From a virus, in IMG/VR virus record IMGVR_UViG_3300020048_000110: a stretch of DNA of 64,000 bases. One strand, written 5' to 3'. The notes under the pieces were generated by a model, which worked only from the letters and a program-made list of their open reading frames with translations, had not been told where the DNA came from and searched no databases. The translations under genes and the position numbers were made by a program. Every line of letters starts with the position of its first letter. Positions within the stretch are counted from its first letter, which is position 1. Below are positions 4,926 to 31,524 of this stretch, piece by piece.

Positions 4926-4929
4926 TTAA

Positions 4930-4961
4930 TTTGGTAAAGTCTAAAATTTTAAGTAATTTTG
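4930..4961 (+). promoter_or_regulatory. Bacteroidetes-type sigma promoter upstream of the 1352-aa ORF
   Basis: TTTG at 4930-4933, a 20-nt spacer, then TAATTTTG at 4954-4961. This matches the -33 TTTG / -7 TAnnTTTG consensus and abuts the terminator hairpin. Confidence 0.5.
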
Positions 4962-4992
4962 CCCCTACATTGAGATAGTGTAGGGGTTTTTT
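4962..4992 (+). terminator. Rho-independent terminator after giant ORF 1
   Basis: Perfect 8-bp stem cccctaca / tgtagggg with a 9-nt loop, followed by TTTTTT. Confidence 0.7.
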
Positions 4993-5003
4993 AAATTAAT
5001 AAT

Positions 5004-13397: not shown

Positions 13398-13410
13398 AAA
13401 GTTTAATTAA

Positions 13411-13442
13411 TTTGCATATAAGTAAAAAAAGAGTTACTTTTG
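13411..13442 (+). promoter_or_regulatory. Bacteroidetes-type sigma promoter upstream of the 899-aa ORF
   Basis: TTTG at 13411-13414, a 20-nt spacer, then TACTTTTG at 13435-13442. A TTTGCATAAAATT motif is shared with the 31.5 kb intergenic region. Confidence 0.55.
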
Positions 13443-13459
13443 CATAAAATTATTAATAA

Positions 13460-16159
13460 ATGGCTAACGCATATTCAGCACCGATAAATTACGGAAGATA
13501 TATAGAACATGATAGTGTCCAACTAATAGGACAGGTACAAACAGCACTACAACAAAGATATGATGCAAATACCGCTAAGGTAGATGAAATGATATCTATG
13601 GTGTCAAATGTTCCATTGATAAGAGAAGAAGATAAAAAGTACCTTGGAGAAAAAATCCAAGGTCTTTTGTCTATGGTTGATGCCAATTCAAAAATAGATC
13701 TTACAAGCAATAACATTACTAGACAAATAACTAACTACATTAGTACAGCAATAGACGGCAATGTAAAAAAACAAGTAGCTAATTCTCAAAAGATAATGTC
13801 TTTCCAAAAAGACATGGAAGACTTACTCACTAAAGACCCAAAATTATACAACGAAGGTAATGTAGCTTATGCTCAAGATAAAGCTGGATACTCTGATTAT
13901 ATTAGTGGAAAAACTAACGACTTAGGTAACCTTTCCTACAATCCATACGTAGACTATAAAACTACAACTATGGAGAAAGCTATAAAACTAAAGCAGTTAA
14001 AAGGTGATCAAGAGATAGAGACCGTAATGAATGACGAGGATGGGAATCCTACAATCAAGCAAAAAGTTAAAATCAGCGGTTTAACACCAGAGGAAATTAT
14101 CAAATACTTTCCAGAGATGTTGACAGCACAAGAAGAAAAACAGATGGCTATAGATGGTTGGAATTCATTAAGAGGAGCTAAACCAGACCAAATAAAAAAA
14201 ATAGCAGATGACTACTTTAGCAAAATGAAGTCGGGTGTATCTGAGAAAATAAAAGAATTAGATAATATTATAAATAGCGGAAATACTTTTTCTCAAGCAA
14301 AAAGAGAAGAAGCAGCTAGGATAAAAAAACAATACGAATCAGACTTAACAAACATAGGGAGTAAAGAGAAAAACGTAGATAAGTCTAATCCAGAAGCAGT
14401 TGGTTATATGGTCAATAGGTCTGAGTTTATGAATTCTGCAACAGGTTTATTCTCAGGAAGACAATCTGTAACTTATGAAACAAATGAAGTATACTTTAAG
14501 AAGCAAGATTTAGAAATAAAAAGAGAAGAGTTAGCTCAAAAGAAAATAGAGCACGCTGCTAAAATGAAGAAGGAGTATGGACAAGCCGCTGATGGATCTA
14601 CTTTACCTTCAGCAGATTCTGGAAGTTTTGTAAGCTCTGCTATTGCAAATCAAGAAGTTGCACCTTCAGATTTTTATGCAACTACAAAAGAAGCTTTTAA
14701 TAAAGCATATGATACAATTGTATCTACAGGAGAAGCAGTATATAATGACCCAACTATAAACGCTAGTAATAAAGATGCTTATAAAAAAGGTTTAGAGAAG
14801 TTTAACTATACCATAAAAGGTGGAAAGGTTGTTTCAACACTACCAGAAGGTCAAAATAAAAATTCAAAAGCAGCAGCTATAGAAATAGCTTTTCATGAGA
14901 GTGGTATAAGTAAAATTAATAATGGTTACGATAAAGTAATTAGTGACGCTAGTGAAGTAAGATCTCATTTATCAGATGCTTTAGTGAAAGCAGAAAAAAA
15001 TATAGGAAAAGATTTTGACACAGATGATTATGTAAGTAGTTTTGAAGATGTATATAAGAAAATGAATTTCCAAAACACAGAAGGAGGATTCTTATCATCT
15101 CTATACAAAGATACTCCTGAAGAAAAAGCAAAGTATTCTCAAAAATTTAAATCTTTTATAGACAGCCATGGAGGAATAGAAGGTATTAAAAAAAGAGCAA
15201 AAACTGATAGAAGTCTTTTAGTAACTATGAAAAACTTATGGGATGAAGCAGCAGATAACTTAAAAGAGGTTACTAACATATTTGCTCCAGACCCAACAAA
15301 AACTACAAATAAAATAGGAGAAAGCTTGCAAAACTCAGGTATAAAAAATTATGTTGATGCTAAAAAAAGCGTAAATATAACTACTGAAGATTCAAGAGCT
15401 AAATTAATAAACATGTTGCCTCAACAAATTAGAGATATCAAAGGGAATGTGACTGCTTCAGGAGTAGGAGATTTTGACCCTAAATCAGGTATGACTATAG
15501 AAAAAGGAACTGATTATTATGATATCATACAAGACAGAGGTACCAAAACAGACATTAAAGGAAGTACAGTAGGGGTACCATCTGCAACAGCTAGAGTATA
15601 CAAAGGTAGTGAAGCTTACAAGTATATAGAAGCAAACACTGAAAAACCAGGGTATAAAATAGATGTTAAAGGAGTAAATGACAGCTATAGAATAAAACCT
15701 CTAGTAAAACCAGAGTTTTATAGCAGTAATGATAGGGAGATTGTATCAGAAATGAAGGGTAAATATAATGACCATGTGAATAATGAAGTAAAAACAGCTT
15801 TAACAAACATGGTAGGTATTAACCCTACAGTATTTTTAACTAAAGAAAGTACAAGAGCCTACATGGAAAATATGTTTAATGGTAGAATAGAGCCTGCTAA
15901 AATAGAGATTTTATTAAATAAGATAGAAGCAAATTTTAGTAAATATAAAGTAGAGCTTTTACCAAATAGAAGTAAAGATTGTTGGTCAGTAAGTTTTAAA
16001 TCTCCATACGCAGCTTCTGCTTATATTAGTAATTTTAACGATAAGCCAGAATTAAATTCTGATTTTGCGTATGTTTTAAAAACTATGCCACAAATACCTA
16101 TTATGATAGAAGTTGTAAAAGTATTGAATAGAGATGTAAAAAATATAGATAAGATATAA
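13460..16159 (+). CDS. Large hypothetical structural protein, 899 aa
   Basis: Long ORF preceded by a promoter. No motif recognised. Confidence 0.5.
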   Translation: MANAYSAPINYGRYIEHDSVQLIGQVQTALQQRYDANTAKVDEMISMVSNVPLIREEDKKYLGEKIQGLLSMVDANSKIDLTSNNITRQITNYISTAIDGNVKKQVANSQKIMSFQKDMEDLLTKDPKLYNEGNVAYAQDKAGYSDYISGKTNDLGNLSYNPYVDYKTTTMEKAIKLKQLKGDQEIETVMNDEDGNPTIKQKVKISGLTPEEIIKYFPEMLTAQEEKQMAIDGWNSLRGAKPDQIKKIADDYFSKMKSGVSEKIKELDNIINSGNTFSQAKREEAARIKKQYESDLTNIGSKEKNVDKSNPEAVGYMVNRSEFMNSATGLFSGRQSVTYETNEVYFKKQDLEIKREELAQKKIEHAAKMKKEYGQAADGSTLPSADSGSFVSSAIANQEVAPSDFYATTKEAFNKAYDTIVSTGEAVYNDPTINASNKDAYKKGLEKFNYTIKGGKVVSTLPEGQNKNSKAAAIEIAFHESGISKINNGYDKVISDASEVRSHLSDALVKAEKNIGKDFDTDDYVSSFEDVYKKMNFQNTEGGFLSSLYKDTPEEKAKYSQKFKSFIDSHGGIEGIKKRAKTDRSLLVTMKNLWDEAADNLKEVTNIFAPDPTKTTNKIGESLQNSGIKNYVDAKKSVNITTEDSRAKLINMLPQQIRDIKGNVTASGVGDFDPKSGMTIEKGTDYYDIIQDRGTKTDIKGSTVGVPSATARVYKGSEAYKYIEANTEKPGYKIDVKGVNDSYRIKPLVKPEFYSSNDREIVSEMKGKYNDHVNNEVKTALTNMVGINPTVFLTKESTRAYMENMFNGRIEPAKIEILLNKIEANFSKYKVELLPNRSKDCWSVSFKSPYAASAYISNFNDKPELNSDFAYVLKTMPQIPIMIEVVKVLNRDVKNIDKI

Positions 16160-16160
16160 T

Positions 16161-19100
16161 ATGCCAGACTATAATAAAAAAGATGTTTATTTACAGAATT
16201 TTGATGCGGAAAATGCCGCAGCAAGTGGCTTTACAGGGCTTGATAATTTTAGCACAAATGATGTAGCACAAAGTATAAGAAATTCTTATCTTCCACAAAA
16301 AGACAATAGACAAAAGAAAAACAAGGAAGTACTAAATGACTTCCTTTCTATACAACCTGCTAGTTCATATACCTATGGAGCACCAGTAAAAGTAGAAGAG
16401 AAAGCAGGATTCACAGAAAAGAATTATAATGTTGGAGAGCTTTACACTACACTTAGAGATGGAGAAGTAGTAAAAAACTTTGAAACTTATACTCCTGGGA
16501 TAGACAACTACGAAAACCATGCACAAAACCAATCTACTGCTGAAAAGTGGAAGAATGGTGCTATTAAATTTGCAGGGCAAACTGTTACAGGTATAATAGG
16601 TGGAACATTAGGTACGGTCTATGGAATAGAAGAAGGTATAAGACAAGGATCTTTTAGAGCTACTTATGATAATGACTTTGGAAACTACTTAGATGACTTA
16701 AATGAAAAGTGGAACATAGAACTCCCTAATTATTACAAACAGTCTGAAAAAGAAATGGGATTTGTAGAAAGTATGGGTACTGCTAATTTCTGGGCTAAAG
16801 ACGTACTTGGTGGTGCAGCTTTTACAGTTTCTGCAATTGGTTCAGAGCTTATATGGGATTATGCTACAGGAGGTGCTGCTTTAGCTACTTCTGCAGCTAG
16901 ACTTGGTGCTAAATTTGAAAGATATTTAGGAAAAGGAGCAAGTGCATTAGGAAAACTTGATGATGTAGCGAGAGCTAAAAATCTAACTATTGCACCAATA
17001 AGGAATACCTTTAACAAAACAACAGAAACTGCTAAGATGTTTTCCACAGCAAAGATGCCTACATGGTATGCTACAGCTTTTGGTAAAGCCGGTGCTTTAG
17101 CTAATACAGCAAGGTTTGTATATACTTCTGCAGGATTTGAAGCAGGATTCGAAGCAAGACATTATATAAGAGAAGAAGAAGATAAGTTCTTTGCGGATTT
17201 TGAAAAAAAGAACGGCAAGAAACCTGAAGAAGCAGACATAGCAGAGTTTCAAAAAAACTTGACAGATTCAGCAAATTCACTTTACGGTTTTAATTTAGCA
17301 GTAGTAGGTACTTCTAACTTAGCAACAATCGGTAAAATCTTTAATTTTAAGAGCCCACTTAAAGCTCCTAGTTCATGGGTTAATTCAAAACTATTCGGTG
17401 TTGGAGCAAAAGCAGAAGCTGGAGAAATTATTGCAAAACAAGCAACAAAAGCTCAAAAGATAAGTCAGTATGCTTATAGTATAACTAAACCTATGTTTGT
17501 TGAAGGTTTATATGAGGAAGGTATGCAATCAGTAGGTAGTAACACTGCTAAAAAATGGATTGAATCAAAATACGATCCTAAGTTAACAGAAGGAACTTAC
17601 AGTTTAGGTAACGCTTGGAATGATAGTCTTTCACAAACTTATGGCACTAAAGAAGGGTTCAAAGAAGTTGGTATAGGTATGATTGTCGGTATGATTGCTG
17701 GACATGGAGTAAACTTAGTAAAAGGAAGAGGTTTAAATGCAGAGTTCTCTAACGAGAAATACAAAGCAGAAGCATTAGCAAACATGTCTAAGTACTATTC
17801 TCCTAAAAAAATGGCAGAGACTTTTGCATACGGCAATAGAGTGCAGATGGCCACAAATTCAGAAAGTACTGCAAAGAGAAAAGGAGATTTTACAGGGGAG
17901 GAATTAGCAAGACAGTCTTCAGTAATAGCACAAATGAACTATGCATATAACTTAGACTATTTTAAAGAAGTAAAAGAAGACTCTATTATAGCAATAAAAA
18001 ATATTGATAATGAGACTTTAATGGACCAATACGGAGTAGACGAATCTGGAGCAGAGGCCCTTAAAAAGTCTATGATAGAGGAGTATAAAGAAACTGCCGA
18101 TACTTATAAAAAGTATAGAGACTTTGCAGAATACTATGTAGGAGACAACTTAAAAGCCGAAGAATCTTTAATAGGAAAAGGTGGTACTTTAGGAGAACAT
18201 GATTCAAAAAGCATAAAAGAGGCTATAGCTTACGAACTTACTTTAGGAGAAAAAGCACACAGTTTTTCTGGAGATCTTCTTCAAGCTATAAAAGAGAAAG
18301 TAGCTAGTACTATTGTTGGAGAAGGTATATCAGAAGCATTAACTATTGATGATATCTTAGCAAAAGCTGGAAAAGATGCAAAAATTCAAGCAGACAATAA
18401 AATAAATCAAATTGAAAAAGTCAATAAGGAAGTAGAAACTATAGAAAAAGACTACAAGCAACTTAAAAAGACTTATGATGATTCTGTTTCAGAAGAAGAA
18501 AAGAAATCTATTCTTGGTAAATTAGATGCTTTAACTTCTAAAAAACAAGAACTTACTCAAGAAAAAGAGCAGTTGAGAAAAGAGTTTGAAATTTTAGTAA
18601 ATACTTCTAAAATGAAAAATCCTTTTGGTAAAGACAAAGGTACTGTAATGATATCTGGAGATACTCTAGATAACTTTAGAAGTAGAACTCAACAAGTAAA
18701 AGATTTAATAGATGGTTATGATAAGATAAACCTACAAGACTCTTTACAACTAAAGAAATTAATACAAGAGTACGGAAAGTCTTTAAATGCTTTTCAAAGA
18801 TACTCAGACCTTTCAAAACAGCTATCTGATCCTAAATTAGGGCTTAGAGGTAGAAGAAACTTAATTGCAGAAATAAGAAGAGATAAAACTCCTTCAGAAG
18901 CAACTGTAGAGACATTACAAGGCCTACTAGACAAAGATAGATTAACTGAGAGAGGAGAACAAGCTTTAGTAGAAAGAGCTGGGGAAATCGAAGGATTAAA
19001 AGCAGAAGTAGAAAAGATAAAAGAAGCAGCTAAAGCTGGTGCCTCTATTCCTAAACCTACTGCTGAACAAATACAAGTTACCAAAGAAGAAGAAATACAA

Positions 19101-22100
19101 GCTATAAAAGATGAGTATGATGTAAAGATAGCAGAACTGTCTAAATCTACTGTTAATACAAACCAGCCTGGTAAAATAATTAATGGGCAGTTTATTCCTG
19201 ATAATTTAGGTACACAAATGGCTGAATCTATGGTTGCAGGACTTTCAAGACTTTCGATAGTTGCTAAACTAAGAGAGCAAGAAGAAAAAGAGCTACTTTC
19301 AAAAATACCAAATGCAAAAAATGCTTTAACAAATGGCGTTGTAGACAAAAACAAACTAACTGATCCAGAAGATATAGCTAAGTTTGAAGAAATCTACGAT
19401 AAATACGATAATTTAATAACTCCTTTACTAGAATATCAAAAAAATATTGATATAATATCTACTCCAGTAGCTGATATAGTAGAAGAGTTAAGTACATTAA
19501 GTACCTTAGAAGAAAAACTAAATTGGTTAAAAGATAATAATTTATTATCTACAATCAATGTTAAAGGCAAAGAGTACAATGTAGTTGATTACTCAGATAG
19601 AGTAATGGTAATGATGAAAATAGGTCAATACAATATACCTTTTTACATTAGCACCGGTCAAGCAGGTAAGAAAAATGTAAAAGCAGGTAATTGGTATGCT
19701 GTTTTTGGTATTGGAGTAGAAGCTGGATGGATAAATAAAGGTTCAGAAGAGCAGATAAACGACAGTTATGGATTTAAATTATTTGAAAAACTATCTAAAA
19801 TACTTAACGAAGGTATAGGTACTATAGAGAGTAGAGAAGATAATGGTAATGGTAGATTAAAAGATGGAATAGGTTTTTTAAGCGACTCTAAACAAGATTT
19901 AGAAGCCTTTAACGATATCATGAACTTACCTACAAAACCAGCTGGAAGAAATACTTATGTTAGTGAATTCTATGACCATGTTAACAGTACGTTATCTTTA
20001 TTAAATAATGAGTTATCTAAAATAGGTACACCTACAAAAACAGTAGATAACAATAAAGAAATTAACGAACTTAAAAAAGAGAGACAAGCTAAACTTGCAG
20101 AAGTAGAGAAAAAATACCCTAAGTCTACAGAAGAAAGAAAAACTCTTACAGAAGAGATAGTTGATATTTTAGAAAACAGTCCTTACTTAGTAGAATATGT
20201 AGGAACTAACGTATCAGAATTACAACCTACAGAAGAAGAGATAACTGAGTTTAGAGATTTAGCAGAAAAAGCAATAAACGATCCAAAAGTAAAACTTGAT
20301 GCTATTGCTTTTAAAAATCCTTACGGAGTTAGTGATTTACCAATGGGTAGAAAAATCATATCACTTTCTAAAGAAGAAGTTAATAGATTACAAGAGCTGA
20401 ATAACAAAATGGCCAATTGGCAACTTTTACAAGCTGCTGCAAATCAAGCCGGGGTTTCAATAAAACAAATTATTGAACAAGACATAGCTAGAAAAGCAAA
20501 AGCTGCAGAAAAAGGTATAGGTACAAAGTTAACAGATACTGAATTAGTAACTAATACTACTATTCAAGAAGACGAGAGTAACTTAGATAAAGAAGGAGCT
20601 AAAAATAGAAATGAGGAAGTTCTACAAGTAGCAGAAGGTTCTTTTATAAGTAGAGGAAGAGGTGGAAAAATGAATATTCATTACCACACTTTGCCAGGAC
20701 TTTTAAAAAGAATGGTTGATGTAAAACCTAGAATTACTGTTTTTAAAACTGAAAAAGTAGGGAATAAAGAAGTAGTAGTAGATAGTACAAGAAAAGAAAT
20801 ACTAAATACAGAACTGTCAAATTATCTAGTCCCAGGATACCACTATCAATTAGCTTTTGAAGATGGTACATCAGTAGAGATTACAATGGAAAAGAGTTCT
20901 GCTCTTTCTTTCAAAAACAGAGAAGATCTAGAAAAAGTTTTATATAGTGCTGATTTAGAGTATGTAGAAAGCACTTTAAATAGAAACGGTGGATATATAC
21001 CAATCTATGACACTCTTACAGGAAGAAAAGTAGCTACAGATTTTCAAGTAGAAGATAACTACTCTCCAGGCCAAATTTACGATATAGCTTCTGGTGAATC
21101 TGTATTCTTTAACTTAGATATGTCAGACCCATACAATTTACAATTGTTAGAGGAGTACAATCAAGAGATTAGAGATAACGTAAGAGATCCAAAAGAAGTA
21201 TTGTCCGATTTCAAAGATTCTATAAAAGTAAATATTACAGACTCTTCTGATAATTCATTAGGGATATTAAAAGCAAATTATGATACTAGAGATCTAAGTA
21301 ACTTCTTAATCCTTAGAGAAAAAGCAGCAGAGTTAGCTTTGGAACCGGCAAATCTTGGTAAAAAAACTGCGATACCTTATACAACAACTGTTAAACATAT
21401 ATTCTTAGGAGCACCTAATCATTCTTTTGAAGATGGTATCTTGAAATATTACGATATAAAACCAGAGTTAGTAAAAGGTTACGGTTATATAAGCAATGGA
21501 GAATTAGTATTAAAAGGAGTTAAAGCATCAACTGTAAGAAAAGAGTATGTTAAAAAACTGTATAATAGAGAAGGTACTCCAGTAGTAGTTTTACAACAAG
21601 GTAAGTACTTAGTAGCTTTTCCTTTGAACTTAATAGAGACAGAAGCAAATCTTGGAGATGAATTCAAAGAGAAACTTCTAGAATCTACTAATATAGCAAA
21701 TACAGTTTTAGAACTAAACCAAAAATTATTAGAGAAAGGCTTATCTCCTAGAAAATACAATTTGTATTTTGTTAGTGAAGAAAACCAAACACTCTTCGAT
21801 GAAAATGGGGATAGTTCAGAAAAGCTAACAGAAGCTATTAATGACCTTAATGCTATAAAAGAAACTGCCGATGTTAAGACTTGGATGGATAGAAATCATA
21901 CAGCCAAAGATTTAGCAGAACAAGCAAATATAGGACTAGATATGACTAGAGACGCATTCTCTTCTCCTAAGCCGATAATTGATTTTATGGGAGATACTTT
22001 TGTAGCTACAGAAGTAGACCAAGATTATTCTGATACTCAGAAAGCATTAAATGCAGCAGAAGTAGTATTGGCAATAGCAGAGAAATCTACAGCTACTACC

Positions 22101-22343
22101 AGAGAAGAAGCAGAAAAAGCAGCAGAAAAGAAAGCAAAAGCTGCAGCTGCTAAAAGAGCTAGAGCTAGGGTAAATAAAACTAAACAAGAAGTTCAAGATA
22201 TGGCAGAACAACAAGAAGAAACACAAGATGTAAATGAAGAAATTATTAATGATTTTGATATAGAAGCTGCAGCAGATGAAATTGCAAAAGAAGATAAATC
22301 TTCAGAAGACTATAGAAAAAATAAACCTAAATTTGACTGCTAA
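16161..22343 (+). CDS. Giant structural or ejected protein, 2060 aa, with Gly/Ala-rich hydrophobic N-terminal segments and a long charged coiled-coil-like middle
   Basis: ORF with a long run of E, K, A and L-rich heptad-like sequence. No catalytic motif seen. Confidence 0.5.
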   Translation: MPDYNKKDVYLQNFDAENAAASGFTGLDNFSTNDVAQSIRNSYLPQKDNRQKKNKEVLNDFLSIQPASSYTYGAPVKVEEKAGFTEKNYNVGELYTTLRDGEVVKNFETYTPGIDNYENHAQNQSTAEKWKNGAIKFAGQTVTGIIGGTLGTVYGIEEGIRQGSFRATYDNDFGNYLDDLNEKWNIELPNYYKQSEKEMGFVESMGTANFWAKDVLGGAAFTVSAIGSELIWDYATGGAALATSAARLGAKFERYLGKGASALGKLDDVARAKNLTIAPIRNTFNKTTETAKMFSTAKMPTWYATAFGKAGALANTARFVYTSAGFEAGFEARHYIREEEDKFFADFEKKNGKKPEEADIAEFQKNLTDSANSLYGFNLAVVGTSNLATIGKIFNFKSPLKAPSSWVNSKLFGVGAKAEAGEIIAKQATKAQKISQYAYSITKPMFVEGLYEEGMQSVGSNTAKKWIESKYDPKLTEGTYSLGNAWNDSLSQTYGTKEGFKEVGIGMIVGMIAGHGVNLVKGRGLNAEFSNEKYKAEALANMSKYYSPKKMAETFAYGNRVQMATNSESTAKRKGDFTGEELARQSSVIAQMNYAYNLDYFKEVKEDSIIAIKNIDNETLMDQYGVDESGAEALKKSMIEEYKETADTYKKYRDFAEYYVGDNLKAEESLIGKGGTLGEHDSKSIKEAIAYELTLGEKAHSFSGDLLQAIKEKVASTIVGEGISEALTIDDILAKAGKDAKIQADNKINQIEKVNKEVETIEKDYKQLKKTYDDSVSEEEKKSILGKLDALTSKKQELTQEKEQLRKEFEILVNTSKMKNPFGKDKGTVMISGDTLDNFRSRTQQVKDLIDGYDKINLQDSLQLKKLIQEYGKSLNAFQRYSDLSKQLSDPKLGLRGRRNLIAEIRRDKTPSEATVETLQGLLDKDRLTERGEQALVERAGEIEGLKAEVEKIKEAAKAGASIPKPTAEQIQVTKEEEIQAIKDEYDVKIAELSKSTVNTNQPGKIINGQFIPDNLGTQMAESMVAGLSRLSIVAKLREQEEKELLSKIPNAKNALTNGVVDKNKLTDPEDIAKFEEIYDKYDNLITPLLEYQKNIDIISTPVADIVEELSTLSTLEEKLNWLKDNNLLSTINVKGKEYNVVDYSDRVMVMMKIGQYNIPFYISTGQAGKKNVKAGNWYAVFGIGVEAGWINKGSEEQINDSYGFKLFEKLSKILNEGIGTIESREDNGNGRLKDGIGFLSDSKQDLEAFNDIMNLPTKPAGRNTYVSEFYDHVNSTLSLLNNELSKIGTPTKTVDNNKEINELKKERQAKLAEVEKKYPKSTEERKTLTEEIVDILENSPYLVEYVGTNVSELQPTEEEITEFRDLAEKAINDPKVKLDAIAFKNPYGVSDLPMGRKIISLSKEEVNRLQELNNKMANWQLLQAAANQAGVSIKQIIEQDIARKAKAAEKGIGTKLTDTELVTNTTIQEDESNLDKEGAKNRNEEVLQVAEGSFISRGRGGKMNIHYHTLPGLLKRMVDVKPRITVFKTEKVGNKEVVVDSTRKEILNTELSNYLVPGYHYQLAFEDGTSVEITMEKSSALSFKNREDLEKVLYSADLEYVESTLNRNGGYIPIYDTLTGRKVATDFQVEDNYSPGQIYDIASGESVFFNLDMSDPYNLQLLEEYNQEIRDNVRDPKEVLSDFKDSIKVNITDSSDNSLGILKANYDTRDLSNFLILREKAAELALEPANLGKKTAIPYTTTVKHIFLGAPNHSFEDGILKYYDIKPELVKGYGYISNGELVLKGVKASTVRKEYVKKLYNREGTPVVVLQQGKYLVAFPLNLIETEANLGDEFKEKLLESTNIANTVLELNQKLLEKGLSPRKYNLYFVSEENQTLFDENGDSSEKLTEAINDLNAIKETADVKTWMDRNHTAKDLAEQANIGLDMTRDAFSSPKPIIDFMGDTFVATEVDQDYSDTQKALNAAEVVLAIAEKSTATTREEAEKAAEKKAKAAAAKRARARVNKTKQEVQDMAEQQEETQDVNEEIINDFDIEAAADEIAKEDKSSEDYRKNKPKFDC

Positions 22344-25318
22344 TGGCATTTTGTGAAGTAAAACCAGAACATTTAAAATGGGTCATGGGCTATGCTCATA
22401 CTCTGATGAAAGAGGGTAAAACAATAGAACAGATTATCTCGGAAGTAAGACAAGAACTTCCGGGAAATCAACCCTTTTTGACTAATACATTATTATCTAA
22501 GATTCCAGCATTTATGCAAATGCTAATGTCTAAAAATTCAGTTTTAGGCAGACAGTACGGAGCAAACTTTTTAGAGATTCAAGACATAAAGGATAGATTT
22601 GAAGGACCTGAAGGATACAATGAAGTAGCTAAATTCAACAACAACGTACAATTAAAAGACGAAGTAGAAGCTGAGATATTAGATATCAAAGAAGAAGTCG
22701 AAGAAGAAGTAACTCCTGAAAAAGAACCTGTTACTCTATTAAAACCTAAAGTAAAAAGAAAATCACCAGGACTATCTAGAGAAGCTAAAAAAGCCATGAG
22801 CTATGAAACTTTTGATCCTTATGGAGAAACTATTAAGTATTTCCTATTAGGGGGTAAGTTACATGAAAGTGGATTATTAGATATATTCAAAGATAATGTT
22901 TTAGCAGAAAAGAACGCCAGAATTAAGTATATATCTTCAGATAAAAAACTGTTAAAAAATGGAGATTTAGAGTCAGCAAGTGGAGTAGACTCATTAGCAC
23001 ATTATTTGTGGGAAGGTACAGATTTAAGACAAGAAGACGGATTTCCAATATATAGCACAGAAGATTATAAAGCAGCCGTTATAGAAATAGTTAGAGGAAC
23101 TACAGATCTAAAAGAACTTGCACTTGACTTTATAGCTATAAATAATATGAAAGCTGCGGAAGAAGAGTACTACAGATCTAGACTAGGAGAACTTACAGAA
23201 GAAGAGCAAGACAGAGAAGATTTTCCAGATGCATATTTAGAAACCTACTTTAGAGAAAGACAAGCCGCAGAAAAAGAGTTAGGAGTTCTCATTGAAATAG
23301 GAGATGGGATAAAATTAGAAATTAAAACACAAACTTATGAAACAAAACAAGAAAAAGGAGAAACTAGAGAAGGTGAAAAAGACTCTGGAAAACAAAATGG
23401 TCAAAGAGTTATACAAGACTTCGGAAAGAATTTCCAACCCAAATTTAGCAATGCAGTACCTTATGGGCTTGAGGGAAAACTAGCAGATCACCAAAAAACA
23501 GGTGTAAATGCAATAGTTCAAGCAGTTTCAAGTAATAATAGTTTCTTATTAGCAGATGGTGCCGGAGCTGGAAAAACCAGAATCTTACTTACTTCAGCTA
23601 GAGTCCTTAAAGAAAGAGGAAGAAAAGTTATTATTGTAACCCAAAACAAGGATATTATACAAGGTAGTTTTAAAGCTGATTCAGCAACTCTTGGTATGTC
23701 TTTTATAAAAGGTAAAAATGATGCTGTAGAAATAGGTGGGGTGCCTGTTGTAACTATTGATAATTTCTCTAAAGTTTTAGATCCTAGAGGTTTTGATACC
23801 ATAATATTAGATGAGAGTCATAAAGCTAGCGGTCTTGTAAGTGAAGCTTCAAAGAAACTTAGAGGTTTTGAAGGGCAAGTAGTTTACGCTAGTGCTACAC
23901 CATTTGATACAGAAAGTAAGACTTTATACATACTTCCTAGATTATTAGGTATGAATGAAGAGTCTTATTTAGAAACAATAGGTGGTAAACTTAAAAAGAT
24001 TCCTAGAAGGGCCGAGCCAGATTTGATATATGATACTGCCAAGTTTAATTCTTTGATGAATACAGTTCACTCTAGATTTATATCTGAGGGTAAAATGTTA
24101 CATAGAAGATTTGAATTTTATGGAAATGACAAGCTAGACTTGAACACAATAGGTAATGCAGATGAGTTTGGAGGAGGTTACTCTATAGAGGAATTAGAAG
24201 AAAGAATCAGAGAATTAGCTAGAGAAAAAGCCAAAAAGGTATTCTTGACAGACGCAGATGTAAGAGCAGGAGAAACCGTAGAATCCAAAAAAAGGAAAGT
24301 CTATGAACAAACTGCTAACCAAATTAAGTCGGTACCAGAAACTTTCAAAGCTAACAATGATATGATAGCCCAAGTACAAAAAGATTTAGCAGATGGGAAA
24401 CAAGTCATAATCTACAGTGTAAACGTAAAAGAAGATGGAATGTCTTATAAAATTCTAAACCGAGAAGGAGAAGAAGAAACGGTAAATAGGCCTGCTATGA
24501 TTACACAAATGGAAAAAAAGCTGAAAGATAGAAATATAGACTTTGGAGTTGTAACTGGAAAAATAAGAAACAGACCGGCTATTGTAGATAAGTTTCAAAA
24601 AGGAGAACTAAAAGTACTCTTGATAAACGAGTCTGGAACAACAGGTATTAACTTAAACGATACAGTAGGTAACGCACCAAGAAAGTTATATATTGCAGGA
24701 GCTTTACCAAGTGCTATTCAATTAGAACAAGTTAAGGGTAGGGTAAGTAGGATCAATAATGCATCTGCTGCAGAAGTTTCTTATGTATCCGTAAACTCAT
24801 CAGCAGAAGGTAGAAACAGAGAAAAATTAATAGCTAAAATGGCTATTATGAATAGTATCTTAACCGGAGAGCAATTAAACAATGTTATTGGAAAACAGAA
24901 TAAAATCGAAGAGATTAAAAAAACTGTTAAAGATGGGTTCATAGAACCTTATCTAGAAGATACTGATGGTGGTGCAAAGTTCTTAGTAAAAGGAAGTACT
25001 CAAGAAATAAAAGACATACTTAAAACATTAGGAGCTAGAGGTATATACAGTGCACCTAAAGTATTTTCTGGATGGGAATTTCCAGCTATAAGAAAGCAAG
25101 AGATTCAAGATTTTCTTAATACTACATTTAACAAAGTTGCGGATATAAATAAAGGTATAGGAAGAGTAAATGAAGAGATCAGTGCGATAGGACAAGAGGC
25201 TCCAACTACAACTAAACCAGAAGTACCAAACAGAATACAGAATATATTAGGCGATATAGTTTCTCCAAGCGAAGAGATGATTAGAAAATCTCAAGACGAA
25301 CAAAATAAAAGATGCTAA
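22343..25318 (+). CDS. SF2 (DEAD/DEAH-like) helicase-domain protein, 991 aa, embedded in the giant structural block
   Basis: Motif I LADGAGAGKT at about 23548-23579. Motif II IILDESHKA at about 23800. Motif III YASATP. Motif VI QVKGRVSRI at about 24730. Confidence 0.65.
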   Translation: MAFCEVKPEHLKWVMGYAHTLMKEGKTIEQIISEVRQELPGNQPFLTNTLLSKIPAFMQMLMSKNSVLGRQYGANFLEIQDIKDRFEGPEGYNEVAKFNNNVQLKDEVEAEILDIKEEVEEEVTPEKEPVTLLKPKVKRKSPGLSREAKKAMSYETFDPYGETIKYFLLGGKLHESGLLDIFKDNVLAEKNARIKYISSDKKLLKNGDLESASGVDSLAHYLWEGTDLRQEDGFPIYSTEDYKAAVIEIVRGTTDLKELALDFIAINNMKAAEEEYYRSRLGELTEEEQDREDFPDAYLETYFRERQAAEKELGVLIEIGDGIKLEIKTQTYETKQEKGETREGEKDSGKQNGQRVIQDFGKNFQPKFSNAVPYGLEGKLADHQKTGVNAIVQAVSSNNSFLLADGAGAGKTRILLTSARVLKERGRKVIIVTQNKDIIQGSFKADSATLGMSFIKGKNDAVEIGGVPVVTIDNFSKVLDPRGFDTIILDESHKASGLVSEASKKLRGFEGQVVYASATPFDTESKTLYILPRLLGMNEESYLETIGGKLKKIPRRAEPDLIYDTAKFNSLMNTVHSRFISEGKMLHRRFEFYGNDKLDLNTIGNADEFGGGYSIEELEERIRELAREKAKKVFLTDADVRAGETVESKKRKVYEQTANQIKSVPETFKANNDMIAQVQKDLADGKQVIIYSVNVKEDGMSYKILNREGEEETVNRPAMITQMEKKLKDRNIDFGVVTGKIRNRPAIVDKFQKGELKVLLINESGTTGINLNDTVGNAPRKLYIAGALPSAIQLEQVKGRVSRINNASAAEVSYVSVNSSAEGRNREKLIAKMAIMNSILTGEQLNNVIGKQNKIEEIKKTVKDGFIEPYLEDTDGGAKFLVKGSTQEIKDILKTLGARGIYSAPKVFSGWEFPAIRKQEIQDFLNTTFNKVADINKGIGRVNEEISAIGQEAPTTTKPEVPNRIQNILGDIVSPSEEMIRKSQDEQNKRC

Positions 25319-25332
25319 AAAGTTTTAATCTA

Positions 25333-25364
25333 TTTGGTAATTACAGAAATAATCCATAAATTTG
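25333..25364 (+). promoter_or_regulatory. Bacteroidetes-type sigma promoter upstream of the 2014-aa ORF
   Basis: TTTG at 25333-25336, a 20-nt spacer, then TAAATTTG at 25357-25364. Confidence 0.55.
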
Positions 25365-25384
25365 CGTATTAAAAAAATATAAGA

Positions 25385-28300
25385 ATGGCAATAGAATGTA
25401 GAATTTTAAGAAACGAGTACGGAGAGATTGATCATGTTATAGCTAATAACGGAGAAAGAAGCGAACTATTCGACAACTTAGTAGATATATCGGGCGGTAA
25501 TAAAGATACCGCCCTAGATCTTTATGCACTAACTGAAACAGAAGAGTTTAAAGAACTTACTGAACTAAAAAGTAACGAAGAAAGAGTAAAATTTCTAAAG
25601 GAATTTCAAAAAGAGAAACCTTTTTTTGGCAAAGATGTAAAATTCCAGAAAACGGAAATAAAAAAGACAGCTATAACTCCAGAAGAACAAAAACAAGAAA
25701 TCATAAACCAACTTAAAAAGACAGGTTTAGCAGGTAATGTTTTTGAGATGTCTAACGATGAAATAGAGTCAAAACTGCAAGAGATTGGGGTAGATTCTGA
25801 AGTAGCAAAACAAGTATCAAAATATCATAAATCAAGACTTTTTGTACCTAATGTTAGAGGGGGCTGGACAAAAGAAAAGATAGTAAAGTACTTCAAATCT
25901 AAAAGTAGTCAAACTGTTACTGACTACGGTATTATACAAATGATTTCTGAATTTGACTCATTTGATGATTTTAAAAAGAATGTATTTTTTCACGGTACAA
26001 CAAATTTCATAGAGAAGGGGCTAAAACCTTCTATCACTATGAGTGAAAGAGATGCAGAAAGATATGGAGGAGGAGGTTATGGAGAAAGATATTTTGGAAT
26101 CTCCCTAACAAAGGATAAAAAAATAGCAGAATCATTTTCTGGAACAAGCAGTAGTGTTAAGGTATACCCAGTTATCTTAAAGAAAGACGCAAAGGTAATA
26201 AACAGAGAAGATTTACAAGACGCTTCTGATGTAGAAGATATAATAGTAGAACTATATGAACAAGGGGTAGATGCTGTATGGATAGGTGGAGGAGAACAAG
26301 AATTAGTAGTTGTGAACCCTTATGCTGTAAGTTTATATAAGAATGGATCAGAAAGTTTTCAAGTATATGGTGGATTCAAAAGCGTACAACCAACTGATAA
26401 AAAACTTTCACAAATCTTCAATAAAGCTAAAAAAGAAGCAGTTGGGTTAGAAAAAGAGTTTAATTCTATTTCAGGTAAAGAGAATAAAGATACCTTTTTA
26501 AGCAACATAGGTAAAACACAGTTTTCAAAAAACCTATCAGAAAAAGGTATAGGGGTAACTACTTCTGGATTTACTTTTAAAGGAGATGTATACTTAAATA
26601 ATGAATCTGCTACTGAAAATACTTCTATACATGAGTTTCAACATTTACATTTAGATTATCTAAAAGAGAATAGAAAACAAGTATATGAGCAAGGTTTATC
26701 ATTAATTCAAAATGAGTTAGCTCTTGGTGAAAATAGTGAAATAAAAGATGTAATAGATTTTGTTAATAGTACACAACCAGACCTTACAGGTGAAAAACTA
26801 CATAACGAGATACTAACAGAACTACTTGGTAGAAAAGGTCTTGACTTAATAGAAGAAACAAAAGATACAGTTAAAAAAGGAGGTATATTAGAGTGGTTGA
26901 AAAACGTATGGGCCGATATAAAATCTATGTGGGGAATCTCTAAGATGAGTAACTCTGAAGTTAAAAAGTTAACATTAGGTAAATATGTTAGAGCTATGAA
27001 CATAGATATCTTAGGTGGAGAAAAATTAATTGGAGATCAAGCACAAGAGTATTTTGCAAGAAATGCAGATAGGCTTCCTCTTACACTTTCAGTATTCCGA
27101 AGACCAGAATTTATAAAACTACAAGGCAAAGAGATTAATCCTATCACGGTTTTAAATTCATTAAATCAAACAGGTATTAAGCAGATTGAAAAAGAACTTA
27201 TAAAAAACGTAATAGAAAAAAACTATCAAGGGCAAAATAAAATATCATACGATGAATTAGAAGCAACTGTAAGAGCAAATATAATGCCTTTAGAGAGGAT
27301 ATTTACAACCAGTTATTCAGATTATGGTATGGAGAGGCTTAGTGATGGAAATTATGGAGAGGCAACTACTATAATATTAAACTCTCCAATAGATCATGGT
27401 ATTGTAGGGCATTTTTCAGGGTCTTTTGTAACATCTGGAAGAAAGAATATAAAATATATGCCAAAACAACTTAATGGTAGTACTTGGGTGGCAGTTGAAG
27501 AAGGATATGAAAGCCAAGCAAATGATAATAACATTTACCAATTTGTAGGAACAGCTGGTACAAAAGAAGCTGTTGATGAGTGGATTAGCAAGTATAAAAA
27601 CCCAAATAACTTATTAAGTATAGATGACAAATCTCTTATAATAGAAGTTTCTGAAGTATCTCAAAGTACAAAAGAACAGTTTCCAGATTCGGACATAGTA
27701 GATGTACAGTTATTAAGAAATGGAGAAGTTTTAAAAACATCAAGAAGAATGCTTAGGAATTCTGAAGAGAATATGAGAGCTAATATAATTGATAATTATA
27801 ACATAGAAAAAGATTCATTATCAGAAACAACTATAAACAAAGGAATGTTTGGTCATATACGTGTATGGCAAGATGGAGATATATTTAATGTTGCAGAACT
27901 TCAATCAGATTACTTTCAAAAAAGTAATGCTAAAAAAGAGATAGTACCTAACGCACCTGAATATACTAAAAAACTAATAGAATTACAAAGTAAGTATAAA
28001 AAAATAGCGGTAGAGAATCTTAGAAGAATAGGTATTACAACTAGGGAAGAAGCGTTAACTTCACTAAATTTATCAACACCTTTGCAAATTAGAAGAGCAG
28101 TTGAAGCTAAAACTATAATAATAGATAAAAATAGTGAAATACAAAAACTTTTAGACACAATAGAGGAAGGGCTTAAAAGCAATGATATTGAAGTACGTAG
28201 ACAGATAGATAAAGATGTATCTAGAGTTATTGAAATAGTTGGTAAAAATCCTGACATTACATCTAATGATAGTTACATAAAAGAGTTAAATCAATTAAAA

Positions 28301-31300
28301 GATAACTATCTCTCACTACAAGAAAAGCAATTTATAGCATCTCAAAAAGAGTTTGAAAAAAGAATGGTTAGAGAAGCAATAAAAGAAGCATCTCTATCAG
28401 GGGCCACAGAACTCCGTTTTCCTACACCATATACCTTGAGTGTTATTGAGGGATACCTATCAGAAAATGGTGGCATGCCTTATGAAATAGAAAGTGCGGA
28501 AGATAGTAGTCGTTTAGAATCTGGTGACACAATTTACTATGCAGGAGAAGAATACACTGTATTAAATTCTTGGTATGAAAATATAGAAGTAGCACAAACT
28601 AGCTCCTTATATTCAACAGAAATAGATTCTTTTATAGAAGAACAAGTTAGTTCTGAAGTTGATGAAATTATGGACTACGGACTTGATGTTGATATTACAA
28701 AATTTTATACCCAAGAAGAGTGGGACAATGAAGATAAATATCGTGCACTAGAAGACACACAATTAGAAGATTTAGGAAAAGAGATTGAAGACGGTGTATA
28801 CGAATTATCAGAAACTAAAATAAGAAATTTAATAGAAGAGGATAAGAGAGATTACTACAATTCAGAGAGTATAGAAAGTATACTCGAAGATATGGGATAT
28901 GAGAATGTAGTTGTAAAGGGAGATACCGCATATTACACACCATACGGAACATCAACAGAAACTTTTGGACAACCTGATACATACGATAATGAAAGCGACA
29001 AAGAATCTTTTACTATAGAAGGCAGCCTAGATGACACACAACAAACAGTTGCTCGTAAGTACGAACAAATTGCTAAAATTCTAGAACAAGAAAGAGGAGA
29101 AGATAACTTTGAGATAATTACAGATGACAGTGGTTTTGATTGGTACTCAACAAAAATAGATCCGAGTGAAACAGACAACCCTGTAGTAGCTTTCCAAAAA
29201 CAAGAAGAAAAACCAACTGTAACCTATAAAAACTCTAAAATATATTCTGCACAAAGAACAAATCCTATTACAGGAGAGCCAACTGGAGAAATAGAATTAA
29301 AAACAATAGAAACTGATAAATTATCTAGAGGTAAAGGTCAAGCAAGAGCAGCTTTAAAGGAATTCCTTAATTATACAGACGCTATAGGAAAAGATGTTTA
29401 TTTAGTAGTTACTCCTAGAGATAGCAGTACTAGATTCACTAGCCTAGTAGACTTTTACAAATCTGAAGGTTTTGAAATGGAACCTACAGAATTCGAAATG
29501 GTAAGGAAAGCAAAACGTGTTAAGGCAGCTAATTTTGATGTTAATGGAGAACCAGATATAAAAACTGTTCTAGACTTTTCTAACAGAAGTAGTGATGGAC
29601 TTACCTCAGAAGAGAAAGTACAAGCCATGAATTTCTTAGTTAGTACAGGATTAAAAACTTCTACAGAACTTCTTTCTAAGCTAGAAGATACGTTTTTCAA
29701 GAATGGTCTATTTGTAGCTAACAAAGTTAAGATGTCTAAAAGCGGATTATACAACAAGTTTGAAATATCTGAAATTACACAATCTCCTATTTTACAGAAA
29801 GAGATAAAAGAATTAGTACTTGCACTTAGGAATACAGAAGAGATGTCAATAGATTATGACAGCAAATTTGTAAAAGGCGAAACTACCAGTTTAAATAATT
29901 TTGGAAAACAGACAGTATCTAATCCTTACATCTTAGAAAAGGAAATTGCTACAGAAATCGCAGGAGTACCTTTAGAGGATGTAAGACAGTACTTATCTTC
30001 TGATATGTCATCTAAATATAAAACTGATTCTGCTTTTAAAAAGGTAGTAGATAGAATTGCTACAGAAAATAAATTAGCAAGTGTTAAGAAGATAGTTAAT
30101 GGAGAATTAGTAGATAAAACTTCAGATACTTCTGAAAAACTAAACCTTACTTTAATAAAAGAAATAGATCAAGAGTTATTAGAAAAGTTATATTATCTGA
30201 CAAACTCTATTTCTGAAAACGTATGGAATCAAAACTTGGATTTAGTATCTAAGTCAATAGAAGATGTATCAAGTTTAGCTAAACAAAACGGTATAGATTT
30301 TTCAAACTTATCTACAAAAGTATATAGCATACCAAGACAAGAAGTAGTAAATTTACTGAACTCTTTTGTAGAGCTAGTTGCAAGTGAAGATAGTCAGAAT
30401 TTAGAAGAGTTTTCTAGTTTATATGACAACATGTTTGATACAACTCAGCCACAAAAAGAGTTGATTAAAACAGATAGTGAATTCGATGTTGTATTAGATA
30501 CTAATTTATCAGAGCAAGAATTATTTTCTAGTTATGATTTAGTAAAAAAAGCAGATGGTATCTACAGAAAAATAGACCCTACTACTTTAGACGATTTATA
30601 CGACTCTTTCTTCAACTATAAAAATTTATTCCCTAGCAGTATAGCTGATATAGAACAATTAAAAAGCTACGTACAAGAAAAGTCTATAGACAACGTAGAA
30701 AACGGTTTTTCTATAGAAGAGGGAGATATGGAGAAAATGTGGATGTACAAAAAGTTCTTTAACTTTCCGATGAATATTTCAAAAGAAAGAGTAGAAGTAG
30801 AGAGGACTAAAAATATAACCCTTGATTCTGAGTATCTGACCGGGGATTTTATAAAAGATTTCAATGTGTACTTACTAGAGTCTGGAAACAAGTATTTCAA
30901 AGTTACAGAAAAAGGTATTGAATTAGAGAATAATGATCCAATATCAAAAGAGGAAGCTAAATTGTCTCTTTCAGAAGAACTAACAGAAGTACTAGCTCAA
31001 TACGATGCGTTATCTAGACATTTAAATTTAGGATTAGAATCTAAGTTGGATACCTATGAAGATTTTAACACTGAAAACGCACAAAGAGTTAACGCTGTAA
31101 ATAACCCTGATTCTGTGCCTAAATTAACTGGAGAGTATACTTATGTAGAAGAAGGCATTTTAGCAGCTAAGAATGAAGCTAATGCGTTTGTAAGGACTCC
31201 AGTGGGGGTATTTGAATTAGTCTATGAAGTGAACAATGTAAAATTCTTCAATAAACTTCCAGATGCAGATCCTAACTACAAATTGTACGAGTTAGAAAAG

Positions 31301-31429: not shown

Positions 31430-31435
31430 GAAGAG

Positions 31436-31466
31436 AGGCTGTCAAAAAAAGGCAGCCTTATCTTTT
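31436..31466 (+). terminator. Rho-independent terminator after the 2014-aa ORF
   Basis: Stem aggctgtc / ggcagcct (8 bp with one G-U pair) around an aaaaaaa loop, followed by tatctttt. Confidence 0.6.
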
Positions 31467-31480
31467 AATTAATTTTTTTA

Positions 31481-31504
31481 TTTGAAAAAAAAGGTTTAAA
31501 TTTG
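31481..31504 (+). promoter_or_regulatory. Putative promoter for the 1915-aa ORF. The -7 element is canonical and the -33 is weak
   Basis: TAAATTTG at 31497-31504. The only TTTG upstream lies 12 nt away instead of about 20. It shares TTTGCATAAAATT with the 13.4 kb promoter. Confidence 0.35.
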
Positions 31505-31524
31505 CATAAAATTTTAGTAAAAAT

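Follow-up and report, generated by a model that had tools for sequence, protein, structure and literature searches.

We analysed a stretch of viral DNA of 64,000 nucleotides (nt; IMG/VR record IMGVR_UViG_3300020048_000110), referred to below as the window, in which a gene at positions 22343-25318 encodes a helicase-like protein of superfamily 2 (SF2), 991 amino acids (aa) long, among giant genes related to phage virion genes. On balance, the explanation that we favour is that this protein is a free-standing SNF2 translocase of the polyvalent-protein type that is ejected into the host, that it forms one link in a series of proteins coupled through terminal cysteines (Cys), and that it acts on the incoming DNA. 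The parts of this explanation differ in strength. Packaging of the helicase in the virion and its ejection, which an earlier note on this DNA had suggested, are very likely, because the gene order is conserved, relatives are fused with the flanking cargo, Cys is depleted and the terminal-Cys signature is shared with cargo verified by mass spectrometry (MS); we infer packaging from these four lines together. The coupling of four proteins in gene order by their terminal Cys would, from the placement of these residues, be close to an even call.

Results

The protein has the motifs and predicted fold of an SNF2-like SF2 ATPase

The gene and the domains of its product are listed below.

22343..25318, + strand: SNF2-like SF2 ATPase, 991 aa (open reading frame (ORF) call, translation, motifs, Pfam, PHROG)
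22343..22690, + strand: N-terminal domain (aa 1-116), conserved and all-helical, opening with the invariant MxFCxVKxEHLxW
22778..23278, + strand: second pre-helicase domain (aa 146-312), acidic (net charge -14), mixed alpha/beta, conserved
23453..24877, + strand: two-lobe helicase/translocase core (aa 371-845; Pfam ResIII and Helicase_C, Foldseek, motifs)
24944..25117, + strand: small C-terminal domain (aa 868-925, ...LKTLGARG...GWEFP...; alignments)

The ORF stands between ORFs of 2060 aa and 2014 aa, and its ATG shares the A with the TAA of the upstream 2060-aa gene (...GAC TGC TAATGG...), an overlap (TAATG) that the earlier note had correctly pointed out. The SF2 motifs occur in canonical order, also as described there: motif I GAGAGKT (aa 406-412, nt 23558-23578), Ia VTQNK (aa 432-436), II DESH (aa 490-493, nt 23810-23821), III SAT (aa 517-519, nt 23891-23899), V TTGINL (aa 766-771) and VI QVKGRVSR (aa 796-803, nt 24728-24751); SAT also occurs incidentally at aa 447-449. 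Membership of SF2 is borne out by Pfam, with ResIII at aa 379-498 (E 2.8e-8, 34.3 bits, cutoff 22.5) and Helicase_C at aa 720-804 (E 4.8e-5, 24.0 bits, cutoff 23.5), by the PHROG "DNA helicase" families phrog_62 (3.7e-23) and phrog_16 (4.3e-17), and by the predicted fold. Across 10 homologues with 46-82% identity the motifs are invariant or nearly so, most of them having DESQ instead of DESH.

In the AlphaFold2 (AF2) model the core has a predicted local distance difference test (pLDDT) score of about 70-85 and alternating beta-alpha elements at aa 400-520 and 687-816, and a helical insert of about 170 aa lies between motif III and lobe 2 (aa 524-683). Foldseek matched this core to Chd1, ISWI, INO80, CSB/Rad26, Rad54 and XPB (E 1e-11 to 1e-8); among structures in the PDB, ranks 1-17 were SNF2 remodellers, with XPB interspersed from rank 18. 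The alignments to SF2 enzymes extended over 500-700 columns, in agreement with two tandem RecA-like lobes. In a library of viral structures the model matched SNF2-type phage helicases, and a homologue of the 70-kDa ATPase of the giant-virus early transcription factor VETF ranked second. A profile search of PDB sequences with the helicase gave no match. The window protein itself scored 17.2 bits against SNF2-rel_dom, below the cutoff of 24.9, its motif II reading DESHKASG in context; its giant relatives, described below, carry the SNF2-type motif II DEAHNxKN (DEAHxxKN), and 7 of 13 match Pfam SNF2-rel_dom. Because the model matches SNF2 remodellers, XPB and SNF2-type phage helicases, the description that fits the protein best is an SNF2-like SF2 ATPase, which most likely acts as a translocase on double-stranded DNA and not as a replicative strand-separating helicase.

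Other assignments were considered and rejected. Against the Strawberry notch (Sno) helicases the scores stayed low (AAA_34 16 bits, cutoff 27; Helicase_C_4 19.3 bits, cutoff 30.5) and no winged helix-turn-helix could be assigned. For DpdE, ZorD and GajB, only sub-threshold matches at the level of motifs were seen with NCBIfam and PADLOC, giving no evidence of membership. Orthology to replicative or recombination helicases of the DnaB, UvrD or RecQ type was rejected as well: the NCBIfam matches of the protein lie far below the cutoffs, and the replication genes belong to a different module on the opposite strand. The clear orthology to a replication or recombination helicase that would have spoken against the earlier note was thus not found, and the phage has a separate DnaB-like gene.

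In every case the helicase core is followed by the small C-terminal domain (signature LKxLGG(K/R)W...KGWxFP), in stand-alone members of the family as well as in giant polyvalent proteins. In the giants its consensus reads LKxLGGKW...KGWxFP; in the window protein it is not recognised by any Pfam family.

The gene occupies a conserved slot among homologues of virion cargo genes

The window (about 32% G+C) consists of two halves in opposite orientation. On the + strand, positions 96-37272 carry a series of giant genes whose products match virion proteins of the Cellulophaga phages phi4:1/phi17:2 (Lightbulbvirus), the closest deposited genomes, with 28-31% aa identity. The phi4:1 gene order from gp042 to gp035 is kept in this block; according to the record annotation, all of these phi4:1 products but the small gp036 were found in virions by tandem mass spectrometry (MS/MS). 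On the - strand, positions 37385-64000 form a module for replication and nucleotide metabolism, with DNA polymerase, DnaB-like helicase, primase-like protein, ribonucleotide reductase, ThyX, dUTPase and exonucleases. The position that the earlier note had given the helicase, between giant cargo-like ORFs and outside the replication module, is therefore right. This uncultured phage is related to phi4:1/phi17:2 and, at a greater distance, to the crAss-like phages.

The order gp039 homologue, gp038 homologue, helicase, gp037 homologue, gp035 homologue is identical in three diverged contigs, L003, L005 and L006 (44-50% identity), in all of which the helicase start overlaps the upstream stop. By gene order, the helicase and its downstream neighbour fill the slot held in phage phi14:2 by g066, the virion RNA polymerase (vRNAP). 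No homologue of this crAss-type catalytic enzyme (phi14:2 g066 / crAss001 gp50, DFDxD) was detectable in the 64-kb window, and tblastn with g066 also found nothing in the complete phi4:1 genome or in phi17:2. The product of phi4:1 gp037, considered as a helicase homologue on account of its position, is not homologous.

In a collection of 5.8 billion proteins the helicase family has only 12 cluster representatives, all metagenomic. A full profile search of 1.8 billion representatives gave 1,114 relatives, the nearest being helicase modules within proteins of 3,000-5,700 aa. Outside the immediate family, the genes of the closest homologues (E 1e-192 to 1e-30) lie next to virion genes. P0013 (3427 aa), on a phage contig of 132 kb with other LPD23 and ART-PolyVal proteins, combines a gp038-like N-terminal part, ddrB-ParB and the helicase; part of the aa 146-312 domain of the window protein aligns with its pre-helicase region. 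P0014 (3841 aa), encoded directly after a crAss-type muzzle gene, combines the helicase, the HExxH domain found in the ORF downstream of the helicase in the window, and RadC-JAB. Thirteen further giants carry ddrB-ParB, LPD38, RadC, LPD1, LPD23, Kinase-PolyVal, PBECR2 or tail lysozyme, which as Pfam families were defined for polyvalent proteins, and a methyltransferase match was present in only 1 of 13 giant relatives. Polyvalent proteins have been argued to be packed in virions or transferred with the DNA, and they include two families of SNF2-related helicases with DarB as archetype (PMC5512222). The window shares with them a homologous helicase module beside virion and late genes. The several (2-15) unrelated effector domains in one polypeptide that also mark polyvalent proteins are not found, the 991 aa holding a single enzymatic domain. 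As a separate product with one enzymatic domain, the helicase is not itself polyvalent; polyvalency is distributed over separate gene products, which may be coupled by Cys.

One protein stands apart: P0100 (682 aa, 10 Cys) matches the N-terminal domain of the helicase over its N-terminal 96 aa and continues with a DnaQ-like exonuclease region and leucine-rich repeats; either the N-terminal module has been shuffled into another protein or the assembly is chimeric.

Cysteines are confined to the gene junctions

The helicase has only two Cys, Cys4 (22352-22354) and the last residue, Cys991 (25313-25315). In the 2060-aa protein encoded upstream (16161-22343), the sole Cys is the last residue (codon 22338-22340). 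The 2014-aa protein downstream (25385-31429) has only Cys5 (25397-25399) and its last residue Cys2014 (31424-31426), and the 1915-aa protein that follows (31525-37272) only Cys3 (31531-31533). These four consecutive proteins thus hold 6 Cys in 6,980 residues, against about 96 expected from the replication proteins of the same window (84 Cys in 6,088 residues, 1.38%). None of the six is more than 5 residues away from one of the three gene junctions, both outer ends of the series are free of Cys, and the counts pair one-to-one across each junction; the naive chance of such a placement is about 6e-15. The pattern can be stated as an end rule: Cys is C-terminal only in the first protein, present at both ends in the middle ones, and N-terminal only in the last.

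All 12 members of the helicase family have exactly two Cys, one at position 4 and one at the last or penultimate residue, and L003, L005 and L006 obey the end rule in full. L009 and L015 follow the rule; the terminal-Cys pattern was also noted in L001, L009, L012, L015 and L019. Among cultured phages, phi4:1 gp038, gp037 and gp035 obey it. In phi14:2, the only Cys of g067 is its last residue, g066 carries Cys at positions 3 and 2179 of 2180, and g065 at position 3 only; the vRNAP gp66 (g066) was shown experimentally to enter the host. In crAss001, Cys are found at position 2339 of 2341 in gp47, at 5 and 2404 of 2412 in gp50 and at 5 in gp49. The rule is partly kept in csAssE-Sib, where a 2208-aa protein has a last-residue Cys only and a 752-aa protein has Cys5 and Cys751. 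A giant late block after muzzle and tail genes, together with the near-absence of Cys except at the termini (a mark of cargo derived in the present analysis), characterizes crAss-type cargo, and the helicase has both.

Changes in gene structure are informative in this respect. In the P0013 fusion the junction Cys pair is gone and the sole Cys is the penultimate residue, and the next protein in the contig has Cys5 and Cys707 of 708. An extra gene within the series of L006 adds its own pair (...EEC* followed by MAC...). In L016, a contig 99.9% identical to the window, a frameshift splits an ORF and there is no Cys pair at the break. These three cases agree with a head-to-tail pairing of the proteins, as far as it can be read from sequence.

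Depletion of Cys extends to the giant relatives. The helicase-bearing giants P0013-P0159 have 145 Cys in 313,863 residues; the 89 of at least 2,000 aa have 0.046% Cys, 43 of the 89 have none, although some exceed 5,000 aa, and several have a single C-terminal Cys. By comparison, the cytoplasmic SNF2 helicase g056 of phi14:2 has 6 Cys in 403 aa. In crAss001 virions disulfides do form, between tail and portal proteins. The papers on the crAss001 disulfides, on the phi14:2 polymerase and on polyvalent proteins (PMC5512222), and a recent N4 paper, do not mention cargo cysteines; in PMC5512222 the word "cysteine" is absent, so that neither depletion nor terminal Cys is mentioned. A full-text literature search on cargo cysteines gave nothing relevant, and Cys depletion of giant polyvalent proteins was not found in the searchable literature on these proteins.

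Neighbouring genes and transcription signals

The features around the helicase gene to which the argument refers are the following.

13460..16159, + strand: first gene of the operon, 899 aa, homologue of phi4:1 virion protein gp039, one Cys (phrog_32131, E 1.5e-32)
16161..22343, + strand: 2060-aa cargo protein, homologous to phi4:1 gp038, phi14:2 g067 and crAss001 gp47, proposed first link (tblastn/BLASTP)
25385..31429, + strand: 2014-aa multidomain protein, proposed third link (C-terminal ~500 aa match phi4:1 gp037, BLASTP 2e-18)
31525..37272, + strand: 1915-aa cargo protein, homologous to phi4:1 gp035, phi14:2 g065 ("RNAP-associated", that is, associated with RNA polymerase (RNAP)) and crAss001 gp49, proposed last link (tblastn/BLASTP)
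13411..13443, + strand: late-promoter-like element of the Bacteroidota type (TTTG-N-TAnnTTTGC) before the three-gene unit 13460..25318 (pattern search)
25333..25365, + strand: late-promoter-like element in the gap that follows the helicase gene, marking the end of the helicase operon (pattern search)
44465-45577, - strand: separate DnaB-like gene

The three genes 13460-16159, 16161-22343 and 22343-25318 are separated by a 1-nt gap and then a 1-nt overlap. On the + strand, matches to the promoter pattern were confined to the intergenic gaps at 4930, 13411 and 25333, and none lies directly before the helicase gene; a related element follows a hairpin ahead of 31525. The elements before the operon and after the helicase are kept in L003, L005 and L006. 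Given the tight junctions, and with promoter-like elements lying ahead of 13460 and beyond 25318 but nowhere between, the three genes form one late-type unit and share a transcript, the helicase gene being the last. The intergenic gaps of the + block (4926-5003, 13398-13459, 25319-25384 and 31430-31524) contain promoter-like elements (TTAATTAATTTG ... TAAATTTGCATAAAA), and two of them a G+C-rich hairpin followed by a T-run (CCCCTACA...TGTAGGGGTTTTTT at ~4962-5000 and AGGCTGTC...GGCAGCCT at ~31436-31460). The arrangement of elements and hairpins suggests late transcription in units by the host RNAP, and the type of promoter points to a host among marine Flavobacteriia.

Among the virion proteins to which the neighbours are homologous, the phi4:1 product gp039 is annotated as detected by MS/MS. 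For the 2060-aa protein, tblastn gave 6e-70 with gp038, and BLASTP 7e-16 with gp47 and 2e-8 with g067; for the 1915-aa protein, tblastn with gp035 gave E 0 at 99% coverage, and BLASTP 5e-12 with gp49 and 4e-8 with g065. According to annotations and PMC10172136, phi4:1 gp038/gp037/gp035, phi14:2 g067/g065 and crAss001 gp47/gp49 were detected in virions by MS. The 2014-aa protein had no match above threshold in Pfam, PHROG, NCBIfam or PADLOC. It contains a zincin-like HExxH domain at about aa 385-568 (motif HEFQH, aa 416-420, nt 26630-26644), with a weak match to DUF4932, that recurs in the giants P0014, P0039 and P0053. As this domain is missing from the orthologous ORFs of L003, L005 and L006, the N-terminal 1,500 aa of the protein are modular and variable. 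At 13043-19062 of L016, which comes from another sample, an indel of about 25 nt splits the 2014-aa ORF into 654 and 1323 aa, through either an assembly error or a natural frameshift variant; an evolved gene split was rejected, being a frameshift in sequence 99.9% identical to the window.

In the 1915-aa protein, a conserved hydrophobic helix followed by an acidic patch lies at aa ~1760-1800 (nt ~36800-36925; FLQALFLVSLALGKWADDDKDE) and is also present in phi4:1 gp035, csAssE-Sib and crAss001 gp49. Through this segment the ejected complex may insert into a membrane. Two acidic stretches were considered as RNAP catalytic sequences and discarded: DFDTD in ORF 13460-16159 is conserved in no homologue, and DDDKD in ORF 31525-37272, considered as a catalytic loop, sits in a conserved hydrophobic/acidic C-terminal segment. 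Further upstream, ORF 5004-9062 (1352 aa) opens with a domain resembling lytic transglycosylases (phrog_4067, aa 7-187) and contains just 2 Cys, and overlapping ORFs of 850 aa and 601 aa (region 9059-11611 of the window) have none; the three products are probably further ejected proteins. In the replication half, ARAGORN called tRNA-Met (CAT) at 58143-58215 (-) and tRNA-His with anticodon ATG at 59915-60002 (-), the latter unusually long (88 nt) and possibly spurious or atypical.

Discussion

Proposed role and alternative explanations

The sequence of events that we propose is as follows. The helicase would be packed into the capsid as cargo and coupled head to tail with its neighbours through the terminal Cys, the disulfides probably forming in the released, oxidised virion. 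The resulting linear train would run from the gp47-like protein (2060 aa) through the helicase and the 2014-aa metallopeptidase-bearing protein to the gp49-like protein (1915 aa); it would be threaded unfolded through the tail into the host, and its members separated by reduction in the cytoplasm. The general depletion of Cys is in keeping with proteins that have to pass the tail and the periplasm in unfolded form. In the most speculative step, the helicase would use ATP to move along the entering phage DNA. The likeliest purpose would be to shield this DNA from host defences that target DNA, or to strip them from it, in cis and in a Dar-like manner; pulling or remodelling the DNA would be the main alternative purpose. 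We lean towards protection or clearing of incoming DNA because the relatives carry Dar-type and conflict domains (ddrB-ParB, RadC, kinase, RNase).

Several observations weigh against this explanation. Searched with the whole helicase (nucleotide and tblastn), 50,697 deposited phage genomes gave nothing at 1e-5; the core alone gave generic matches only (E 8e-5 or weaker), a scan of IMG/VR gave no relatives, and a metagenome scan gave two poor loci only. With no cultured or deposited phage carrying the helicase, its packaging is something that we infer, and as phi4:1, phi14:2 and crAss001 manage without it, it is accessory. Bonding of the terminal Cys to one another is our interpretation, and the rule has exceptions: Cys1334 of crAss001 gp50 is internal, a 1719-aa protein of L006 has Cys866, the 752-aa protein of csAssE-Sib has 4 Cys, two of them internal, and the 1885-aa protein of csAssE-Sib at the gp035/gp49 position breaks the end rule, with Cys at 1298, 1486 and 1635 and none at the termini. 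Since many giant relatives have no Cys at all, chaining would not be universal. The biochemical role is proposed through guilt by association, no methylase or nuclease partner having been found; no fold or family assignment was obtained for the N-terminal domains (aa 1-312), and the AF2 model has a mean pLDDT of 59 with termini of low confidence.

Among the alternatives, the helicase could be cargo with a mechanical job, reeling in the genome or opening the duplex for early transcription. SNF2-type enzymes track along double-stranded DNA (PMC5512222), and ejected enzymes have been proposed as an ejection motor in N4-like phages. The flanking proteins are homologous to "RNAP-associated" cargo of crAss-like phages. 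In vitro, the phi14:2 vRNAP accepts as template only DNA that is single-stranded or has been denatured, and QDE-1, a eukaryotic relative of this enzyme, depends on the helicase QDE-3. The second rank of a virion-packaged giant-virus SF2 ATPase among the viral structures points the same way; this match, however, is a generic SNF2-like similarity with 16% identity. We regard the mechanical job as unlikely: there is perhaps no virion polymerase to assist, given the lack of a catalytic vRNAP homologue in the window or in phi4:1, the phages that do have one (phi14:2, crAss001) lack this helicase, and its closest relatives are fused to conflict-type domains and not to polymerase modules. The transcription factor that the earlier note had offered as one option, or a polymerase cofactor, is weakened in the same way because no g066/gp50 homologue is detectable, though phi14:2 gp66 needs a single-stranded template. 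It is quite improbable that the protein is no virion component and that, with its gene merely placed in the structural operon, it works late in the infected cell, whether in recombination, concatemer processing, packaging or the restart of replication. Phage modules for DNA metabolism often include SF2/SNF2 helicases (phi14:2 g056 is an example), and PHROG places the nearest families, labelled "DNA helicase", under DNA metabolism; but the replication module already has a DnaB-like helicase and a primase-like protein on the other strand, the two Cys in 991 aa are both terminal, against 1.38% in the replication proteins and 6 in 403 aa in g056, and the gene is fused to cargo proteins in other phages and keeps its cargo slot and translational coupling at 44-50% identity.

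The terminal Cys could do something else than join the cargo proteins. They might tie each of them to the capsid, the portal or a scaffold, coordinate a metal, or serve as a signal for packaging or processing; the depletion of Cys would then merely reflect unfolded passage through the oxidising periplasm. Taken alone, the depletion would be explained by the avoidance of unwanted disulfides during ejection, by analogy with unfolded secreted substrates; structural proteins are joined by disulfides at the tail and portal vertex of crAss001, and the many giant relatives with no Cys need no chain. Yet anchoring does not readily account for the end rule, which is seen in six lineages or more, and the loss of a junction pair on gene fusion, its gain with an extra gene and the one-to-one counts across junctions also speak for coupling; we hold these other functions to be rather unlikely. 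Orthology to P1 DarB, with anti-restriction coupled to methylation as in P1, was also considered, DarB being the virion-packaged, SNF2-related archetype of the class (PMC5512222). Neither the helicase nor the neighbouring ORFs have a methyltransferase or LPD36 domain; the profile comparison with DarB proposed in the earlier note (hhalign) gave a probability of 0.9%, reflecting generic similarity of motifs V-VI only, and the relatives pair the helicase with ddrB-ParB, LPD38 or RadC and not with an adenine methylase (any methyltransferase match in 1 of 13). On these comparisons orthology to DarB appears effectively refuted. What survives of the DarB analogy is the broad class, the SNF2-related helicase modules of virion-delivered polyvalent proteins (PMC5512222).

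Beyond this locus, we tentatively propose that in crAss-like and related Bacteroidota podophages the ejected cargo is a covalent disulfide train in gene order, with conserved end wagons (gp47/g067-like and gp49/g065-like) and swappable effectors between them, namely the catalytic RNAP, the SNF2 helicase or metallopeptidase-bearing polyvalent proteins. The absence of a detectable catalytic RNAP between the g067- and g065-like ends in the window points to middle positions that hold exchangeable effectors, and to "RNAP-associated" end proteins that may act as general carriers and not as polymerase subunits. If the train exists, ejection of proteins would be ordered and redox-gated, the train being pulled as one thread, and the splitting and fusing of giant polyvalent proteins without loss of function would be explained. 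How podophages of the N4-like and crAss-like types move megadaltons of protein through a tail channel of 3-5 nm, and in which order, is an open problem (PMC10172136, PMC13434306), for which head-to-tail disulfide coupling is a concrete hypothesis, testable in cultured phi14:2, phi4:1 and crAss001. The locus also yields a criterion for ejected cargo that needs the sequence only, near-zero Cys with terminal Cys under the end rule, and which fits the phi14:2 vRNAP. Within the proposed chain, a DNA motor of the SNF2 type can be a modular, exchangeable cargo, and marine relatives of the crAss-like phages probably inject a DNA translocase.

The "undescribed early-infection function" announced in the earlier note was overstated, because virion-delivered helicase modules are known from P1 DarB, from JC1 gp69, found in virions (PMC9144972), and from giants with helicases catalogued computationally in 2017. 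Virion-borne helicase modules are thus already known. Two points are new: a helicase module that stands alone and is inserted as a separate link between cargo proteins of the crAss type, in a lineage that is uncultured and has no deposited relative, and the end rule of terminal Cys that ties the helicase to its neighbours.

Comparison with known systems

The polyvalent proteins (PMC5512222) resemble the present case in having homologous helicase modules with SNF2-like inserts, encoded beside virion genes and predicted to be delivered with the DNA. They differ in that the module of the window is a separate 991-aa product, with its single enzymatic domain bracketed by single terminal Cys. P1 DarB and the giants of Bcep22-like podophages share a virion-packaged SF2 helicase module among late and structural genes; JC1 gp69 (4515 aa), a DarB-like protein of a Bcep22-like podophage, was detected in virions by MS (PMC9144972). 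DarB protects incoming P1 DNA in cis against type I restriction. Its dyad consists of LPD36 and an EcoKI/TaqI-like adenine methyltransferase, N-terminal to the helicase; the window helicase has no such partner, and the similarity extends to generic motifs only. DarB also has 9 Cys in 2255 aa with no terminal-Cys pattern, and the lineage and packaging of P1, which uses Hdf, DarA and DdrA, are different.

The cargo of Crassvirales (crAss001 gp47/gp49/gp50; phi14:2 g067/g066/g065) comes closer, with homologous outer neighbours in a giant late block after muzzle and tail genes, Cys absent except at the termini, detection in virions and, for phi14:2 gp66, entry into the cell. There, however, the middle link is a catalytic two-barrel RNAP, whereas the slot in the window is taken by the helicase and the 2014-aa HExxH protein, and no helicase is named among the crAss001 cargo (PMC10172136). 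In phi4:1/phi17:2 the virion gene order gp042-gp035 is the same and gp038, gp037 and gp035 follow the terminal-Cys rule, but there is no helicase, the interval between gp038 and gp035 containing only the 517-aa gp037 and a gene of 119 aa whose product is not a virion protein. The SF2 ATPases of poxviruses and giant viruses (the small subunit of VETF, and NPH-I) are SNF2-like, travel in the particle and have immediate-early functions together with a packaged RNAP; unlike them, the window has no detectable packaged RNAP, and the likeness of fold is generic, at 16% identity.

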